64,000 nucleotides of DNA. It comes from Thermoplasmata archaeon. GTDB taxonomy: Archaea > Thermoplasmatota > Thermoplasmata > GCA-020350865. Below the pieces are notes generated by a model. The model was not told the origin of the DNA. It saw only the letters and a list, made by a program, of their open reading frames with translations, and did not search any database. The position numbers and the translations under genes are program-made. The stretch's first letter is position 1, and the number at the start of each line of letters is the position of its first letter. Where the stretch lies: the NCBI GenBank assembly GCA_020348445.1, contig CP070751.1:407772-471771 (forward strand), written 5' to 3'. This document shows, piece after piece, positions 56,675 to 62,443 of this stretch.

Positions 56675-57796
56675 TTAAATGTAACCCTCCATTTCAGCCA
56701 GCTCTGCATTCATTATGGAGCATCCAGCAGCCCCTCTTACTGTATTATGTATTAAAAGGTAGAACCGTATTTTGCCATGGATCCTTTTTATTCGGCCGAT
56801 TGTGACGGCCATACCCCTTGCCCTTTCAGGCTCTCCATTGTAAACATCAAATATTGGTTGGGGCCTGCTTTCATCTTCGGTTACGATAATGGGCCTTTTT
56901 GGTGACGTAGGAGTTTTATTATCAAGACCTTCATAACCAGATAGAGCTCTTTTTACCTCCTCTTCTGAAACATCTTCCTTAAAATCCACCAAAACGGACT
57001 CAAGATGTCCGTCTCTTACAGGAACCCGTGCACAGCTTGCATATACATTGATAGGTGAATGTTCTATCCCAGAATCTGTCAATTTACCCAGTATCTTCCT
57101 GCATTCCACCTCGATTTTCTCCTCCTCGGATTGAATATATGGAACTATATTTCCCGTAATGTCCAGGGAGGGCACACCAGGATATCCAGCTCCCGAGAGG
57201 GCCTGGTAGGTGGTAACGACCACGCTCTTTATTCCAAAGGCCTCATGAAGCGGTTTTAAGGCCGTGGCAAGGCCTGTTACAGAGCAGTTGGCATTGGTCA
57301 CCACATACCCGGATTTTGTCTTCTTTTGATGCTCCACAAGAGCCAGATGATCTGGATTGATATCGGCGATAAGCAGGGGAACATAATCTGCCATACGATT
57401 GGCACTGGCATTTGAGAAAACGAAAAAACCCAAAGATGCCAGATCCATTTCCACATCCTTGGCTATTTTAGGCGGCAGGGCGCTGAATATCAGTTTTATT
57501 TCCTTATCCTTGAAGGTTTTAGGATGGATTTGCTCCACATTCATCTCGCCTATTCCCTCGGGCATTATTTCCTTTAATCTCCAGCTTGCTATATCCCTAT
57601 AAATATGACCCTGGGATTTTCCTGAAGCTACCACAACTCGCAAATCGAACCACGGATGGCCCCAAAGAAGCGCAACAAATCTTTGTCCCACGGCTCCTGT
57701 GGCTCCAATTACCGCAACTGGGATTTTATCCAGATTCTCACGACCCTGACATTCACGATATATAGAATATTTTCTTTTTTTCATTCCAGATAGCAT
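56675..57796 (-). CDS. asd: Aspartate-semialdehyde dehydrogenase (archaeal type; true start probably later)
   Basis: GATG.VGQRF, SNASA.RM...VPL, NANC, YQA.SGAG, EE.K...E, C.RVPV..GH and HNT.RGAAG. Confidence 0.95.
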   Translation of the reverse strand: MLSGMKKRKYSIYRECQGRENLDKIPVAVIGATGAVGQRFVALLWGHPWFDLRVVVASGKSQGHIYRDIASWRLKEIMPEGIGEMNVEQIHPKTFKDKEIKLIFSALPPKIAKDVEMDLASLGFFVFSNASANRMADYVPLLIADINPDHLALVEHQKKTKSGYVVTNANCSVTGLATALKPLHEAFGIKSVVVTTYQALSGAGYPGVPSLDITGNIVPYIQSEEEKIEVECRKILGKLTDSGIEHSPINVYASCARVPVRDGHLESVLVDFKEDVSEEEVKRALSGYEGLDNKTPTSPKRPIIVTEDESRPQPIFDVYNGEPERARGMAVTIGRIKRIHGKIRFYLLIHNTVRGAAGCSIMNAELAEMEGYI

Positions 57797-57927
57797 CTTT
57801 TATTAAATAAACTTTTTACTGAAAATATCGGGTCGTGAAAATGGGGTGATTTATAATAAATATATCAATTATATAACTTCCTCTATGTAACGAATCGATA
57901 TTTAGAGAAAATAGGGTGGTATTTTTT

Positions 57928-58092
57928 CATGGCGCCCCACCCAAGGCGCTCGGTAGTAAGGGGAGCTTGACGATGAAAGGACAGTTGAGTTCCTTAGTGT
58001 TGGAGATGAAGAGAATCATGGATATCTGATGTTTCAGATTTTTATCAGCTTGCCCTTTCTTCAACACCTCCCCTTAGGGCTCAAGCCCTTGG
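57928..58092 (-). ncRNA. Structured leader element, copy B (no large gene attached)
   Basis: Hairpin, GGGGAGGUGU, long nested stem, GAGCGCC-UUGGGUG-GGGCGC, then AUG. Homologous to copies A and C. Confidence 0.55.
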
Positions 58093-58329
58093 TACTTAAT
58101 TGTCTTGCCAGATATATAAAATTTTCGAATCAATTTTATTTATTAATATTAACTTATTAACATTATCTTAACTTTTATTTAAATCGAAACAAAATAATAA
58201 AATATCCAGATGATAAAAATAATTGAATTTGCCCCGATTTTGCCGAAAATCCCCTCTAATCTCTTGATTTTCTTTAAAAAATATAAAAAAAGGAAGAAGG
58301 TTTAGGGTGGACATTAGCGTTCCAATAGT

Positions 58330-60243
58330 TCAATGTATTATTCTCACTGTGTCGGATCCTTCAAAAGACATGCCGCCAATAAGCTGTCCCGTGACCTTGA
58401 ATTCAGCAGGTCTTCCGTAGCCTCCTCCTACTACCAGATCCTCAAGATCACCGCGGTCGAACTTCACATTCAAAGAGTCCCCTGTCAGTGTTGGATTTTC
58501 GGCCGGAATAATACTCTCCAGATACATTGTTGCTGGATCAATATCTGCCTCATCATAACCATCTGGCAGCTTGATTATGCACGAGACCCATTTGCCATTG
58601 CTCTTGAGATTCAATGTCTCTGGGTGGATCTCTATATCTGCGGGAATCAATTTTATCAATTGGGTCAGATAAGCCTTTGCACCCCACAATTGCAGGGTCT
58701 GGGTCCAGTAGGCCCTAACGCCTGTTAAGTTGGTACCTGGTTTGACCCACACTCCAAAGTGCACCCACTCGCAGTGCTCAATGGGATGGTCCGGGTCCTT
58801 CCATATGATTTCTGTACCTTTTCCGCTGGGAAGCCAGGTGATATGCGGTGGAGTTCCCCATCCGCCGTATAAAGTGGGTCCCCAAGTCTTGTTCACCCAG
58901 TAATAGCTGGGAGCCTTTCCCTTCCAGTACCATTTATCTATGTCCGATGGCTGCACCCCGAATAGCTCCAACTCGAAATTATCGACTTTCTCATGGTAGT
59001 CGTTGTGTACGTCGAAGTTAACCAACTGGCCGACTATGGTCGGAGTGCTATTGGCCTCTATTATGGCTTCATTGACAAAATGGCCCTCGATGATATTGGG
59101 AGTGGATCCAAATGCCACAGTGTAGCGAACCAAAACAGCTCTATCGCCTGGATTGGTGGGAATATCATACTCCAAAACATCACCGGCTTCCATTATGGCT
59201 GGGTCCCTGATTCCATCTCCATCCATGTCCACATCTATCTCTTCCCAAGGTAACATCTCTGTCCCATCCCATGTGAGGTCATCCAACGGGATTTCGTCCT
59301 GAAGGACCACGAAGTCACGGAGAAGTGCCGCGGGCTCTGGGTGCGGTTCGCCGGCCGGGGGTTCTGGCTCGTATACAATAAAATCTGTTACTCCTCCGGA
59401 AAATTGTCTCCAGAACTGAATTGGTGCTGGAATGCGCTTTACCTTCTTCTCCAGTCTGAGGGCAACACCGAAATGGATCCACTCGCATGGCTGAACAGGA
59501 TGACCCGGGTCTATCCATTCTATCTCTATGCCACCTGGTATAGTGTTAATCTGCGGTGGTGCGCCCCAACCCCCATACCATACTGTTCCAAGGGATGTGT
59601 TGTACCGGGTAGGTGGACCTGCTGGATCGTAGACATAGAGAATATCGTCTGGTTCTATATTGCCGTAAAGCTCCAGCTCGAAGTTGTCAATGGGTTCGTG
59701 ATAGTCGTTGTGAACGTCGAAGTTCGAAAGGGAGCCCCTAATGGCTGGGGGACTTCCTCTCTCGAGTATGGCCTCGTTGATGAAATGTGCCTCGATCACA
59801 TCGGGAGAAGATTCCCACGCCACTGAGTATCGAACTAAAACTGCATTGTCGTTATCGGTAATGGGTATTGTTACCCTTATTTCTCCGTTTAAGGGTATTA
59901 ATGCGCCTGGGTATGGATCTATCTCAACCCAATGTTGTCGCAGTATTTCTGGGTCCTGTATTGTGAGATGGTTTAGTGGAATTGCCATATCTGCCACAGC
60001 ATACTCGCGCTGAACATATACTCCATCATCAGTTCCTGGTGGATCGAAGAATATGATGTCCTCAACACCGATTACAGCTTCCCCTGTTGGATCTGTAGGG
60101 TCCCTTACGATTCGCCACTTCTGCCACGGGACCGGGATCTTTTTCACTTTCTTTACATCATAATCTCCCGCTGTGGGAGTCACGAATAGCGCCATTGCTA
60201 CCAATGCTAAACAAAGCAACACGCTTATCGCTTTTCCTCGCAT
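58330..60243 (-). CDS. Secreted protein with two copies of a ~235-aa unknown domain and a C-terminal TLN..K..G.W...FDR domain
   Basis: Signal peptide; duplicated AVLVRY.VA...IE.HF.NEAI, NFDVHNDYHE..DNFELEL.G, YGGWG.PP.I and CEW.HFGV. Confidence 0.85.
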   Translation of the reverse strand: MRGKAISVLLCLALVAMALFVTPTAGDYDVKKVKKIPVPWQKWRIVRDPTDPTGEAVIGVEDIIFFDPPGTDDGVYVQREYAVADMAIPLNHLTIQDPEILRQHWVEIDPYPGALIPLNGEIRVTIPITDNDNAVLVRYSVAWESSPDVIEAHFINEAILERGSPPAIRGSLSNFDVHNDYHEPIDNFELELYGNIEPDDILYVYDPAGPPTRYNTSLGTVWYGGWGAPPQINTIPGGIEIEWIDPGHPVQPCEWIHFGVALRLEKKVKRIPAPIQFWRQFSGGVTDFIVYEPEPPAGEPHPEPAALLRDFVVLQDEIPLDDLTWDGTEMLPWEEIDVDMDGDGIRDPAIMEAGDVLEYDIPTNPGDRAVLVRYTVAFGSTPNIIEGHFVNEAIIEANSTPTIVGQLVNFDVHNDYHEKVDNFELELFGVQPSDIDKWYWKGKAPSYYWVNKTWGPTLYGGWGTPPHITWLPSGKGTEIIWKDPDHPIEHCEWVHFGVWVKPGTNLTGVRAYWTQTLQLWGAKAYLTQLIKLIPADIEIHPETLNLKSNGKWVSCIIKLPDGYDEADIDPATMYLESIIPAENPTLTGDSLNVKFDRGDLEDLVVGGGYGRPAEFKVTGQLIGGMSFEGSDTVRIIH

Positions 60244-60288
60244 CTGTTTTCACCTCCTCCCTGCGAAGGGATTATTGGTTTTTTTTGT

Positions 60289-60452
60289 CATTGCGCCCCA
60301 CCTCGGCGCTCAATATTGGGGGATTGTTATTTAAGAACCCTTTTGTTAAGTTATTAAGAGATATTCTAAAAATCACTGATATCCTGGCTATGAGATTAAC
60401 TTCACAAGTTCTCTTTCTCTCTGACACCTCCCCCCAAAGGCATTTGCCTTGG
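60289..60452 (-). ncRNA. Structured leader element, copy A (upstream of 60243)
   Basis: Same layout as B and C; GAGCGCCGAGGUGGGGCGC-A-AUG. Confidence 0.6.
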
Positions 60453-60968
60453 CAGTTGATTGCAATGAAAATACTTAATATTTTCGTATATATATAAATT
60501 AAAAATTATATTAACAATCTCGCATTTGTATTACACTTTTACATTCTTTTTTGTTACAACTTTGCAATACAGCGCCTTATCTATGGTAAACACTTTAATG
60601 AAAAATCGATAATGCGTTCTTTGGGGGAGATGTAAATTGGGAGAGCGAATTATAAGTTGGGATTAAAGGAACCAAACCAACATATTCAAACTCTCGAAAT
60701 CTATATCAAAGCCCTGGGATATTTTTCCACCCCCCCCAAAGTTTTTCCACGCGAAGATTTGTATGGAATAGAAATATATAAAAGTTGCGAAGAGGCAATA
60801 TGATATTGTTATTTTTTTCTTTTATATTTAACTATATATTAAATCAACTCTTTAAAATAAAAATGCCAGACCTGAAAATTTATAACAAAATAGTTGAAGA
60901 TATGATAACCAGTTTTAAGGCTTCTAAATAAAAAAAGAAAAAAGTGAAAGATGCGTGGGTTGGGCTTA

Positions 60969-62048
60969 TCATTTGACTCTAAAGGCATTGCTTTCCCCCT
61001 CGAATTCTGTACCATCAACGAACTTTCCTGTGATTTTTATGTTGTATACACCTGGTGGAAAGACGTCTTCCATTTCGCTGCGATCGAACTTGACCATTCG
61101 TTCAAGTATACCGTCATTGTCTTCATCCTTGATGTAACCGTCCTCTGACTTCACGAACCCGTATTTCTCATTTAATTCCGGCGGAATCGATTTTTCCATG
61201 AGGATCGTTTTTGGATTTATATCTCTGACAGATAATGTGTCATTGATTTCGATATAGACGGTGACCCAATTTCCGCGCACACCTCCAGTTTTAAGGATGT
61301 TCAGTGTTGGAGGATTTATTTCTACACCAATAACAGTAACAGGAGGTACCTCTTTGGTGATGATCCCAAATCCCATATCCAGCGAATCGCCAGTCTCGGG
61401 GTCCCTCAGTTCCTCCCATGTTATCGAATTGGGATCTCCGCCGGCCCAGTATCCCCAGACCGCATCATCCTCCCATTGAACATTAGAGGTCTTCCAGCCC
61501 CAAATGCCACCGGTGGCCGTTACCTGAATGTCAAGCCAATAGATAGTTCCCAATTCCTGATAGTAGGCATCACCATCAGGGATGGTAACTTGATATTCGT
61601 ACCAAAATTCATGATCATCCAAGTTCCATACATCATTATGGGGATCAAGCCAATTCTGCGTTGAATTAATTTGTGGTAGTATGTAGTCTGGCAGTGCGTT
61701 GTAGGACCACAGCTCATCACCCGGTTTACTGAAAAGAGGGCCAGGGCCATCCGGATCAGGGATATTTTCGTGAAGGCTCAGATGCACGTTCGTGATAATA
61801 CCTATTTGATCCTCTTCCCATGATCCCCAAAAACGAATTCCTACAATCAATCCGCTCTTGTTGCAAGGAAAGTCATCTGCCAAGATTGCAGGCCAGGTGG
61901 CGTTCACGTCCCAGCCACCTGGATTCGGCGACTGTAAATACATGGGTTCAACCAAGGGATCGCCGCTCACAGTTCTCATTTCTGGTAAAACTGCACAGGT
62001 ACCAATCAACAAAACACAGACCAAAATTCCAACTATTTCCTCTCTCAT
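60969..62048 (-). CDS. Secreted protein with a DUF7901-like domain and the same C-terminal domain as 58330-60243
   Basis: Signal peptide; ILADDF.C..SG.I..I.FWGSW, YYQ..GTIYWLDI and WGWKTS (resembles DUF7901, recalled). C-terminal PPTLN...GNWV...VKFDR...TG...G..FEG. Confidence 0.75.
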   Translation of the reverse strand: MREEIVGILVCVLLIGTCAVLPEMRTVSGDPLVEPMYLQSPNPGGWDVNATWPAILADDFPCNKSGLIVGIRFWGSWEEDQIGIITNVHLSLHENIPDPDGPGPLFSKPGDELWSYNALPDYILPQINSTQNWLDPHNDVWNLDDHEFWYEYQVTIPDGDAYYQELGTIYWLDIQVTATGGIWGWKTSNVQWEDDAVWGYWAGGDPNSITWEELRDPETGDSLDMGFGIITKEVPPVTVIGVEINPPTLNILKTGGVRGNWVTVYIEINDTLSVRDINPKTILMEKSIPPELNEKYGFVKSEDGYIKDEDNDGILERMVKFDRSEMEDVFPPGVYNIKITGKFVDGTEFEGESNAFRVK

Positions 62049-62153
62049 TTTTTTATCACCTCCTCCCTGGCTTTGGGATTATTGGTTTTTTGACACATCG
62101 CTGTGCTCATCTTTCACACAGCAAATGCCGCGATTTGCCCGTGCAAATCCTGC

Positions 62154-62314
62154 CATAGCGCCCCACCTCGGCGCTCATTAATGGGAAGGCTGATTAAAAA
62201 AGAGCAAATTGTTCTTAAAATTGGAGATATGATCATTTATATTGTAAATATCTGGATTGTTTGATTAGAACCATCTGCTCCAATTCTCTCTGACACCTCC
62301 CCCCTAGTTTCTAG
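62154..62314 (-). ncRNA. Structured leader element, copy C (upstream of 62048)
   Basis: Same layout as A and B; GAGCGCCGAGGUGGGGCGC-U-AUG. Confidence 0.6.
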
Positions 62315-62443
62315 GATGCAAAAGGAAATTGCGATATAAATACTTAAATCTTATGTAATTGAATAAAATGTTTTAAACAATGTGCCAATAGAAAAGTATT
62401 TATTTCAAACATGGTTTATGAGGTTTGGGGGAGTAATACGATA

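Follow-up and report, generated by a model that had tools for sequence, protein, structure and literature searches.

The STAB-SD elements and 5′ stabilizer stem-loops of Bacillus leaders (cryIIIA, aprE) are bacterial and function at the mRNA 5′ end or close to it, ahead of genes whose abundant products are secreted; they carry a Shine-Dalgarno (SD)-like sequence that does not start the main open reading frame (ORF) and is believed to retain a 30S subunit. Leaders under CsrA/RsmA control carry two sites, a GGA displayed by a hairpin loop and another at the SD, CsrA again being bacterial. The preQ1-I riboswitches (Rfam RF00522) fold as an H-type pseudoknot in which a 5-bp stem and its loop are followed by an A-rich tail and a segment complementary to the loop. 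In archaea, the mRNAs of l7ae carry L7Ae-binding k-turn hairpins in their 5′ UTRs (Daume et al. 2017, PMC5539422; Huang, Ashraf and Lilley 2019, PMC6298567). The hairpin plus AARUACC module considered here is apparently an undescribed archaeal cis-regulatory leader motif: we found no paper in the literature that matches it, and neither the leaders nor their core match any Rfam family; an earlier note had likewise recognized no known riboswitch in them.

Three copies lie on the minus strand of the window, the whole 64,000-nt stretch of Thermoplasmata archaeon DNA that was analyzed. The earlier note had described them as elements of about 165 nt at 57928-58092 (B), 60289-60452 (A) and 62154-62314 (C), and they are located there. 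Much of its structural account is borne out as well: each named helix occurs once, in nested order, in A, B and C; the block that follows the short 5′ hairpin P1, GGGGAGGTGT, is unchanged among them; the 3′ hairpin GAGCGCC-(GA/TTG)GGTG-GGGCGC is found in each; and a TATA-like box is read just upstream of every leader, at 60487-60498 in A (TTTATATATATA), 58112-58121 in B and 62332-62343 in C. The spacer between the invariant blocks, given as 113, 113 and 117 nt, comes to 112, 112 and 116 nt on recounting. In 0-based leader positions, the 5′/3′ strands of the helices fall at 21/132, 43/117, 53/102 and 71/91 in A, at 22/130 and 36/112 in B, and at 16/129, 37/108, 46/102 and 64/87 in C, with P1 and the 3′ hairpin in addition. 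Enforcing the named helices costs 0.9 (A), 3.7 (B) and 2.4 (C) kcal/mol relative to the free minimum-energy fold. When folding energies are compared with those of dinucleotide shuffles, the z-scores of B (-4.15) and C (-2.85) are strongly negative, so the stability of these two copies clearly exceeds chance, but the same cannot be said of A (-0.09). The structured 5′ leaders are real, and A, B and C belong as paralogues to a large family of RNA elements in archaeal 5′ leaders.

In copy A, folding and the helix check place P1 (AAGGC/GCCUU) at 60437-60450; the long irregular stem P0 (60318-60434), defined by its nested helices and the enforced fold, has an outer helix GGGGGA/UCCCCC whose 5′ strand is held within the invariant GGGGAGGUGU (60424-60433). 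The core hairpin, GCGCC-GAGGUGG-GGCGC, with a 5-bp stem and a 7-nt SD-like loop, occupies 60293-60309 and scores 36.8 bits against the covariance model (CM); family co-occurrence sets it in a k-turn-like frame, with GA before the stem and AAU-GA after it (60288-60311). Beyond it come the box (60272-60283), a variant, AAAAACCAAUAA, of the family consensus AAAUACCAAUAA that sits in a 17-nt block with 100% identity to copy C (family D9), a small hairpin UCCCU/AGGGA with the SD GGAGGAGGUGA and ATG (60241-60271), and the gene for a 637-aa signal-peptide protein (58330-60243). Copy C likewise has P1 (62303-62315), GGGGAGGUGU (62293-62302) and a long stem closed by GGGAGG/CUUCCC, which together span 62183-62315 (z -2.85). 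Its core hairpin proper lies at 62158-62174, or 62153-62176 with the flanks GA (5′) and UAUGG (3′), in the latter of which AUG is retained and the k-turn GA is replaced by GG. Two hairpins (62100-62149), also present in the genus relatives L017 and L032, are inserted between the core hairpin and the region of box, SD and ATG (62046-62090), in which the box AAAAACCAAUAA is at 62079-62090 and the SD GGAGGAGGUGA at 62056-62066; the gene that follows encodes a 359-aa DUF7901 signal-peptide protein (60969-62048).

The functional core of these leaders is the 3′ hairpin together with a downstream AARUACC box that was absent from the earlier note. The 3′ boundary drawn there took in the hairpin, but the conserved unit extends beyond it, with box, SD and start codon downstream. 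This core, some 45-50 nt between the promoter and the ribosome-binding site, has four parts: (i) a 5-bp GC hairpin, GCGCC/GGCGC, with a 7-nt purine loop, GAGGAGG or GAGGUGG; (ii) a linker, 8 nt long in a k-turn subclass and 5 nt otherwise; (iii) the invariant single-stranded box AARUACC(C/A)AA; and (iv) the true SD, about 8-18 nt beyond the box, with the start codon next. Of the leader structure first proposed, the terminal hairpin is conserved, but the long irregular stem is the least conserved part. Represented by the three sequences A, B and C, that stem has no sequence match even within the same genus, and at its site other family members have unrelated stems or a short upstream stretch without a stem; the long stem and P1 are lineage-specific additions 5′ of the core.

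Covariation in a larger alignment upholds the terminal hairpin: in more than 100 relatives, compensatory and G-U changes keep the pairing, which holds at 98.9% across 109 distinct sequences; double changes (A-U, U-A) occur in four of the five pairs, and none of 500 shuffles matched the observed covariation. U-G and G-U wobbles of the core hairpin pair on the sense strand only, as had been claimed for the leaders, and the view of a structured, sense-strand 5′ leader that works at the RNA level is upheld; the element is not coding sequence. The inverted repeat GCGCC-N7-GGCGC could in principle be the DNA operator of a dimeric transcription factor; its half-sites are perfectly palindromic, and compensatory changes preserve a palindrome too. 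We nevertheless regard an operator as highly improbable, because at least eight U-G/G-U substitutions keep the RNA pairing while breaking the palindrome, the orientation relative to the gene is strict, the spacing is fixed to the start codon with no preferred value to the promoter, and an asymmetric conserved box follows the repeat.

The family is far larger than the three copies originally claimed, with at least 18-28 in this genome and more in many archaeal phyla. A 17-nt hairpin pattern is found 18 times in the genome and not once for a reversed control, where our own arithmetic puts the chance expectation at about 0.02, so the recurrence of the hairpin is beyond chance; the pattern is present in all four genus relatives. 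The CM yields 28 matches in the genome itself at E ≤ 1, 3-10 in each genus relative at E ≤ 0.05, and, at E ≤ 0.001, 1-15 in single genomes of ANME-1, Borrarchaeum, Methanomassiliicoccales, Bathyarchaeota and Promethearchaeota. The exact hairpin plus box pattern occurs in at least 117 stretches; among the matches listed, nearly all are archaeal MAGs, from at least eight phylum- or order-level groups. These groups (more than 100 loci) include Bathyarchaeia, Asgard archaea, ANME-1 and Methanosarcinales, and further Methanomassiliicoccales, Archaeoglobi, Hadarchaeota and Aenigmatarchaeota. Distribution is patchy, the strict short form appearing in only 4 of the 301 Thermoplasmatota genomes sampled; such patchiness would be odd for an element that needed the universal ribosome only, and it fits better with a dedicated, patchily distributed partner. 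Being multi-copy, patchy over lineages and clustered in some genomes, the element might also be taken for a selfish or neutral MITE-like repeat without host function, a reading to which we give almost no credence. A search for terminal inverted repeats and target duplications found neither, and the element, which the earlier note had allowed might prove to be a MITE, is not one; it always has a single orientation and a single position relative to SD and start codon, its loop and box are near-identical between phyla within unrelated flanks, and its stem carries compensatory changes.

In all contexts read, the element has the orientation of the downstream gene, and an SD and start codon follow it in 127 of 148. 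From the end of the box to the SD-led start codon is mostly 19-31 nt; the distance to the TATA-like box has no preferred value, ranging from 30 to more than 200 nt. An N-terminal hydrophobic (signal or membrane) segment is present in 83 of the 127 downstream proteins (65%), against a background of 24.6% for 2182 SD-led ORFs of this genome. The earlier link to secreted-protein genes gains support from this enrichment (65% versus about 25%); copy B, however, precedes no secreted-protein gene, and roughly one-third of family members lie ahead of genes for cytosolic proteins. The protein families downstream are diverse. The motif precedes mostly secreted-protein genes and probably serves in the control of their translation.

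An SD-like leader sequence that does not start the main ORF, ahead of secreted-protein genes, recalls the STAB-SD elements, and the hairpin could be an mRNA stabilizer that blocks 5′-to-3′ decay, by recruiting the 30S subunit to its SD-like loop or by stable structure alone, as STAB-SD and 5′ stem-loops do in Bacillus, and so raises the output of abundant exported proteins without regulation. This is compatible with the roughly 60% of members in which the SD-like loop is remote from a functional start codon, with several lineages (Loki-type loci L039, L121, L149 and L134) in which the hairpin seemingly lies about 5-25 nt from the inferred transcription start site, and with the large surface proteins with many paralogues among the downstream genes. 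We consider it unlikely, however, in that the element keeps its place relative to the start codon rather than the 5′ end, the promoter distance has no preferred value (about 150 nt in A, B and C and in many copies of this genome), and the invariant single-stranded box would have no role. Unlike STAB-SD elements, moreover, the present element is start-codon anchored, displays its SD-like sequence in a hairpin loop and has an invariant box beside it, and the sequences are unrelated.

The 16S 3′ end in this genome reads GGAUCACCUCCU, and both common loops are complementary to the 16S rRNA 3′ tail, a 6-nt anti-SD complementarity being kept in two registers, AGGAGG and GAGGUG; letters other than A and U are rare at the variable loop position. 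We tentatively favor, at somewhat less than even confidence, an undescribed leader motif that acts on translation initiation through this SD-mimic loop, to which the 30S subunit or a protein would bind. Working in cis, the module would influence how translation of its own mRNA begins, loop and box forming a docking platform beside the real SD. That platform may be bound by the 30S anti-SD tail, as a standby or decoy site, and an RNA-binding protein is a candidate for an alternative or additional binder, with L7Ae perhaps joining in the k-turn subclass. From 1 to about 30 genes per genome, mostly for exported proteins, would thereby come under common post-transcriptional control. What we observe is the motif with its hairpin, orientation, start-codon anchoring and distribution; which partners bind it, and whether output rises or falls, we infer. 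CsrA/RsmA leaders offer a parallel, with a GGA loop about 25-40 nt upstream of an SD bearing the same motif and a regulon in which surface and secreted functions abound, but this genome lacks a CsrA-like gene, and the loop and box consensus is different.

The variable loop letter, U or A, shows tight linkage with the letters at two box positions (ACCAAU versus ACCCAA), which simple anti-SD binding does not explain, and at least 20 otherwise intact elements carry a loop G-to-A mutation, GAGGAAG, with a weaker SD match. Loop WGG might pair with box CCM across the A-rich linker in an H-type, preQ1-I-like pseudoknot that recognizes a small ligand and adjusts how accessible the SD is. The layout would suit (a 5-bp GC stem, a 7-nt loop, an A-rich tail AARUA and CC), preQ1-I riboswitches being similar in size and arrangement with the loop-complementary segment just 5′ of the SD; loop U co-occurs with box A (20 U-A, 3 U-G and 1 C-G), and the motif, like c-di-GMP riboswitches, has several copies in a genome, ahead of genes for surface proteins. 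Natural variants speak otherwise: where the middle loop G is mutated, the box CC is kept in 20 of 21 elements and compensated in one, and the third pair would be A-C in 75 of about 100 sequences. Genes downstream are diverse in function, without a metabolic theme, no queuosine-related genes were found among them, and a search at an E value as lax as 10 matched no Rfam riboswitch. The loop-box pseudoknot found no support when tested and seems to us quite improbable, and the ligand-sensing riboswitch suggested in the earlier note, though possible, gained no specific support.

The k-turn signature GA...NRUGA is present in about 35-40% of copies and absent from about 60%. Its two halves, GA 5′ of the stem and N(A/G/U)UGA 3′, occur together in 43 of 125 elements, singly in 16 and 5, and not at all in 61; the 8-nt linker exceeds the 5-nt one by just the three nucleotides of the k-turn bulge, NRU, and on our reading the flanking bases give no evident NC helix. 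Like the l7ae leaders (PMC5539422, PMC6298567), this subclass has a short 5′-UTR hairpin near the SD whose 3-nt bulge, GAU in l7ae and NRU in the present family, precedes tandem G-A/A-G; in the l7ae leaders a protein locks the hairpin for translational control, and here L7Ae is a predicted partner. Unlike them, the present family has the signature in only a minority, a stable GC stem, a conserved loop and a conserved box that l7ae leaders lack, an SD outside the hairpin, and genes for exported and miscellaneous proteins instead of l7ae. The loop could alternatively be a true SD for an AUG or GUG 6-7 nt on, a uORF of 3-15 codons governing the main ORF: about 40% of members have an RUG at the distance best suited to an SD, A:G:U proportions resemble start-codon usage, and copy C retains AUG despite having lost the k-turn GA. 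Such control is very improbable, in that a start codon is missing from the site in about 60% of members, length, frame and peptide are unconserved (indels change the frame among genus relatives), and the conserved A after RUG and the linked upstream GA suit a k-turn, not a start codon.

Copy B is a counterpoint to a regulatory reading, having no gene to regulate. Its P1 (58076-58089), GGGGAGGUGU (58064-58073) and long stem, closed by GGGGAG/CUCCCC, span 57960-58089 (z -4.15). The core hairpin GCGCC-UUGGGUGG-GGCGC (57932-57949; 57927-57951 with its GA and CAUGA flanks) is a weak CM match, 18.9 bits, because its loop has 8 nt. A canonical box, AAAUACCACCC, and a U-rich run, UAUUUUCUCU, follow at 57904-57924. 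Read downstream of the box, the sequence holds neither an SD nor a gene; the next gene, asd (56675-57796), has an AT-rich promoter region of its own. Copy B is an orphan, possibly a stand-alone small RNA or a relic.

Transcription start sites of the leaders were placed from the TATA-like boxes. In copy A, a weaker TATA-like stretch lies closer to the leader and aligns with the promoter of copy C (family D4).

The elements A (60289-60452), B (57928-58092) and C (62154-62314), all on the minus strand and each about 165 nt long, lie downstream of a TATA-like box, have an invariant GGGGAGGUGU in common close to the 5′ end, and finish at the 3′ end with the hairpin GAGCGCC-(GA/UUG)GGUG-GGGCGC. The earlier note described them as copies of a leader in which nested base pairing is conserved and sequence diverges, and that observation is confirmed, since each helix it named occurs once, in nested order, in its own copy, the fold in which those helices are enforced lies only 0.9 (A), 3.7 (B) and 2.4 (C) kcal/mol above the unconstrained MFE, and A and C have sequence blocks in common. 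These blocks (a 21-nt 5′ motif, 17 nt around a conserved box, and the SD region) are 94-100% identical, and the stem sequences between them are unrelated. Two further particulars stand in part: the spacer between the invariant blocks exists, with a recounted length of 112, 112 and 116 nt (A, B and C) in place of the lengths first reported, and the folding energy is better than that of dinucleotide shuffles in B (MFE z −4.15) and C (−2.85) but not in A (−0.09). Outside the coordinates originally assigned to the elements, a variant of the box, AAAAACCAAUAA, lies on the minus strand at 60272-60283 (A) and 62079-62090 (C); copy B, read directly on the same strand, carries the canonical box, AAAUACCA. 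Copy B contains the hairpin, the k-turn signature discussed below and the box, but what comes after them is a U-rich run and the promoter region that asd has to itself; this orphan copy is a relic or else a small RNA that stands alone. Coding is excluded for all three, because the hairpin is read in different frames in A, B and C and indels shift any frame in relatives. Nor are they a MITE, being without terminal inverted repeats or TSD and repeating only internal blocks among themselves. In every context inspected the element is co-oriented with the downstream start codon, random orientation not being encountered, and we give next to no credence to the idea that it is a functionless repeat.

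The hairpin is an RNA structure. Over 109 distinct sequences, 98.9% of its cells are paired, four of the five pairs change on both sides (G-C to A-U or U-A), and the covariation was reached by none of 500 shuffles and collapsed in slid controls; the RNA-level selection on structure that had been proposed is thus borne out for this 3′ hairpin. The U-G and G-U wobbles within it pair only on the gene-sense strand, and that the conserved unit serves as a DNA operator strikes us as extremely improbable. In the contexts inspected the order is fixed: the hairpin, in many cases with GA before it and N(A/G)UGA after it, comes first; zero to two inserted hairpins and the box (A/U)AAUACC(C/A)AA come next; and the series ends with a short spacer, with or without a small hairpin, a strong SD (GGAGGUGA-like) and a start codon, usually that of a signal-peptide protein. 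The linker between hairpin and box measures 5 nt in 65 of the 125 sequences used as a seed and 7-8 nt in 44.

The three copies first described are not alone: A, B and C belong to a much larger family spread over many lineages. The pattern GCGCC-NNGGWGG-GGCGC occurs 18 times in this organism's own 5.16-Mb genome (reversed control, 0) and is found in all four same-genus genomes. A covariance model of the 47-position core, R1, built from the 125 seed sequences, matched 28 sites in the own genome at E ≤ 1, 3-10 per genus relative at E ≤ 0.05, and 1-15 in each of five other-lineage genomes at E ≤ 0.001, often in tandem clusters. An exact-pattern scan for hairpin plus box, covering one genome per GTDB species, returned at least 117 stretches; the labels among the matches listed include Thermoplasmata, Methanomassiliicoccales, Bathyarchaeia, Promethearchaeota, Borr-, Jord- and Freyarchaeota, Methanophagales/ANME-1, Methanosarcinales, Methanocellales, Archaeoglobi, Hadarchaeota and Aenigmatarchaeota. 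About a dozen of the matches listed bear bacterial labels, six of these being one conserved alphaproteobacterial coding stretch at the longest gap. In two MAGs labeled Aminicenantes (L038) and Dehalococcoidales (L059), a hairpin-box leader is followed by an SD and a signal-peptide ORF; these leaders are apparently genuine, and may reflect misbinning or cross-domain transfer. The strict short form is present in only 4 of 301 sampled Thermoplasmatota genomes, and the distribution of the module is patchy. It is not a viral feature, since the viral contigs of IMG/VR gave a single match. Tandem arrays of three to six small paralogous genes, each with its own hairpin-box leader, occur in an ANME-1 MAG (L069), where they encode secreted proteins of ~160-210 aa, and in Borrarchaeum (L061, L106 and L141), where they encode ATC_hydrolase-like proteins of ~170 aa. 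At two sites in the own genome (G000:C1:1419722 and 2414417) and one in genome G003 (L009), what comes after the hairpin and k-turn signature is a stretch of ~40 nt that is structured and conserved, then the box variant AAAUACCU, then a GGGGAGGGAGG run. No clear ORF was seen at these three sites, which may represent a non-coding RNA that uses the hairpin-box module.

Comparison with known families bears out the earlier remark that the elements match no recognized riboswitch. In a cmscan against Rfam 15 the window had no match at gathering score and nothing overlapped the elements at E ≤ 10; the elements in seven loci from other lineages were without a match at E ≤ 1. A full-text literature search found the hairpin string in no paper and the box string only in unrelated ones, and topical searches yielded no description of the motif. 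A conserved 154-nt UTR of the Methanosarcina S-layer is mentioned in a report whose text gives no sequence to compare (PMC3361143). STAB-SD elements, CsrA-type leaders and preQ1-I-like pseudoknots are close by analogy only, most of their defining features being absent here. Because Rfam 15 and the literature search offer no counterpart and the features of known systems are mostly missing, the hairpin-box module is filed as a putative new family within a known kind, the structured cis-regulatory mRNA leader. CsrA-type regulation was considered and set aside; a six-frame search of the own genome (completeness estimate 82%) did not find PF02599, which was found in the controls E. coli, B. subtilis and T. 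maritima.

The element keeps its position relative to the start of translation and not relative to that of the transcript. From the end of the box to the start codon there are usually 19-31 nt, and the distance from the TATA-like box to the hairpin runs from 30 to more than 200 nt without a preferred value, in a survey whose strict TATA pattern missed 98 of 147 cases. Control by a uORF or leader peptide seems very unlikely, given that RUG is present in only 48 of 125 members and that the length and frame of the uORF vary among close relatives. The suggestion that these leaders control secreted-protein genes holds as a tendency: an N-terminal hydrophobic segment is predicted in 83 of 127 downstream ORFs (65%), against a background, by the same test, of 24.6% of 2182 SD-led ORFs in the own genome, but cytosolic genes are served as well and copy B is an orphan. 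The downstream families are diverse, comprising DUF7901 (the gene of C), FG-GAP repeat proteins, a gp19-like tube protein, many hypothetical secreted proteins, and the small cytosolic proteins ydhR, DUF3303 and ATC_hydrolase-like; the gene of A encodes a 637-aa protein without a Pfam match, and all homologues of the large downstream surface protein are annotated "hypothetical." The genes of A and C (58330-60243 and 60969-62048, both minus strand) encode secreted proteins with a common C-terminal domain of ~120 aa (33% identity, E 1e-10), and the 637-aa protein contains an internal duplication of ~235 aa (DNA repeats D1 and D2, spacing 705-714 nt). Some 3 kb past the end of the window, at G000:C1:474733 (locus L024:954-1457), the gene downstream of a family member with an A-type loop encodes a 168-aa T4 gp19-like tail-tube protein (PF06841, E 1e-29) whose N-terminus resembles a signal peptide, an unusual feature in a tube protein.

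Most members have the loop GAGGAGG, and about a fifth have GAGGUGG. Since the 16S rRNA of this organism ends in GGAUCACCUCCU, both versions keep six bases complementary to that tail, in two registers (AGGAGG and GAGGUG). The leader therefore contains, as in STAB-SD, an SD-complementary sequence that is not used for the main ORF; that the module stabilizes mRNA in the STAB-SD manner is unlikely, though we regard it as worth some weight. Loop and box are also coupled: U in the loop goes with ACCAAU and A with ACCCAA, the highest mutual information in the alignment. A riboswitch of the preQ1-I-like kind, in which loop and box would pair to form a pseudoknot, is nevertheless quite improbable. The GG/CC pairs of the supposed P2 hardly vary, its third "pair" is A-C in 75 sequences, and among 21 elements with a mutated loop (G11) recovered in a metagenome scan, 20 had the box unchanged and one was compensated; for these reasons the pairing is not supported, and the genes downstream have no metabolic theme. 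A search of the own genome for a trans-acting antisense to the box gave 85 ten-mers, none suggestive. At G000:C1:690626-693748 (L151), the match to the Rfam model of 16S rRNA covers only the last ~125 nt; what lies immediately upstream is unlike rRNA, 100 N fall within the stretch, and the gene there is interrupted, masked or misassembled.

A class with a longer linker has GA before the hairpin stem and N(A/G/U)UGA after it. Of 125 sequences, 43 have both parts, 16 and 5 have one part alone, and 61 lack both; the linker of signature members is mostly 3 nt longer (8 vs 5). Copies A and B carry the signature, and copy C has GG replacing the 3′ GA. From the sequence, the C helix, 3-nt bulge and tandem G-A/A-G pairs of an L7Ae-binding kink-turn are predicted in this subclass only, in which the hairpin would be the C helix and the three extra linker nucleotides the bulge. 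Among known systems the closest are the l7ae leaders, whose L7Ae-binding 5′-UTR hairpins have a GAU bulge, tandem G-A/A-G pairs and a loop on the C helix (PMC6298567), a layout that the hairpin shares within the k-turn subclass, to which the likeness is limited. Beyond the G-A pairs, inspection showed no consistent complementarity between the bases that precede GA and those that follow UGA, and three NC-helix pairs can be drawn only in a few lineages (e.g., the Bathyarchaeia loci L035, L040 and L066); we therefore speak of a k-turn signature and not of a proven k-turn.

What is observed, then, is a module that lies on the sense strand directly before the true SD and combines a conserved RNA hairpin, its loop SD-like, with a box that is single-stranded and invariant; in each genome it precedes a small set of genes rich in exported proteins. 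We give a little less than an even chance to the proposal that this module modulates translation initiation in cis, taking two versions jointly: (i) the loop would pair with the anti-SD tail and hold the 30S subunit beside the true SD, at a standby or decoy site; or (ii) a protein would read loop and box together, by analogy with CsrA in bacteria, and L7Ae would join it in the k-turn subclass. The loop variants that are allowed favor anti-SD pairing; the patchy distribution and the coupling of loop and box favor a dedicated partner. With less conviction, we speculate that the module could represent a new riboregulator class in archaea and contribute the RNA half of a dedicated post-transcriptional switch, which would work with a small ligand, with a novel protein or through 30S binding of an unusual mode. 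The switch would define a regulon of exported and cell-surface proteins, would be common to Asgard archaea, Bathyarchaeia, ANME-1, Methanosarcinales, Thermoplasmata and others, and would owe its spread in part to horizontal transfer between sediment archaea; copy B could titrate the partner as a stand-alone decoy RNA. To our knowledge, archaeal cis-regulatory RNAs are few, a handful of riboswitch classes and the L7Ae leader, and none is linked to secreted or surface proteins. The motif is short, near-invariant and easily searched, and it occurs in lineages of high current interest (Asgard archaea, ANME-1, Bathyarchaeia); it may offer a handle on co-regulation of the exported proteome in uncultured archaea, a bait RNA for the factor that reads the module, and a marker for true start codons and 5′ UTRs in MAGs. 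Should the SD-mimic loop engage the ribosome, this would be a first case of a conserved standby or decoy site in archaeal translation initiation.

The long stem upstream of the hairpin appears to be a general but free-form feature, a lineage-specific addition outside the core, because most other leaders of the own genome also fold some long stem, closing a few nucleotides before the hairpin, with unrelated sequences. The stem of A, B and C, represented by three copies, is a putative structure; a DNA-level search for it in genus relatives matched only the hairpin end. As the stems of the three copies cannot be aligned, the structure that RNAalifold derived from their MAFFT alignment was unconvincing, and the helices were therefore checked copy by copy. 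A fourth promoter-proximal long stem, at 60600-60760 on the minus strand between the gene of C and the promoter of A (MFE −42.9 kcal/mol, z −1.7), has an outer helix, CUUUGGGGGGGGUGG/CAUCUCCCCCAAAG, that resembles that of the three elements, and is without the core hairpin or box; it could be either a relative that has been truncated or a small RNA in its own right. RNAalifold on the ANME/Methanosarcinales subgroup pointed to an upstream pyrimidine run that would pair with the true SD, and so did the CUCCCC strand of A, B and C; attractive as this idea is, it is not consistent across lineages and is therefore kept as a lead only. Ten ANME-1/Methanosarcinales members (L041, L045, L069, L073, L097, L104, L105, L111, L116 and L132) have an extra conserved upstream segment of ~45 nt (..UGCCUUCGGGUA..GGUAAGUGCAUCAGA) that includes a hairpin of variable length, which suggests a larger structured leader in that lineage.
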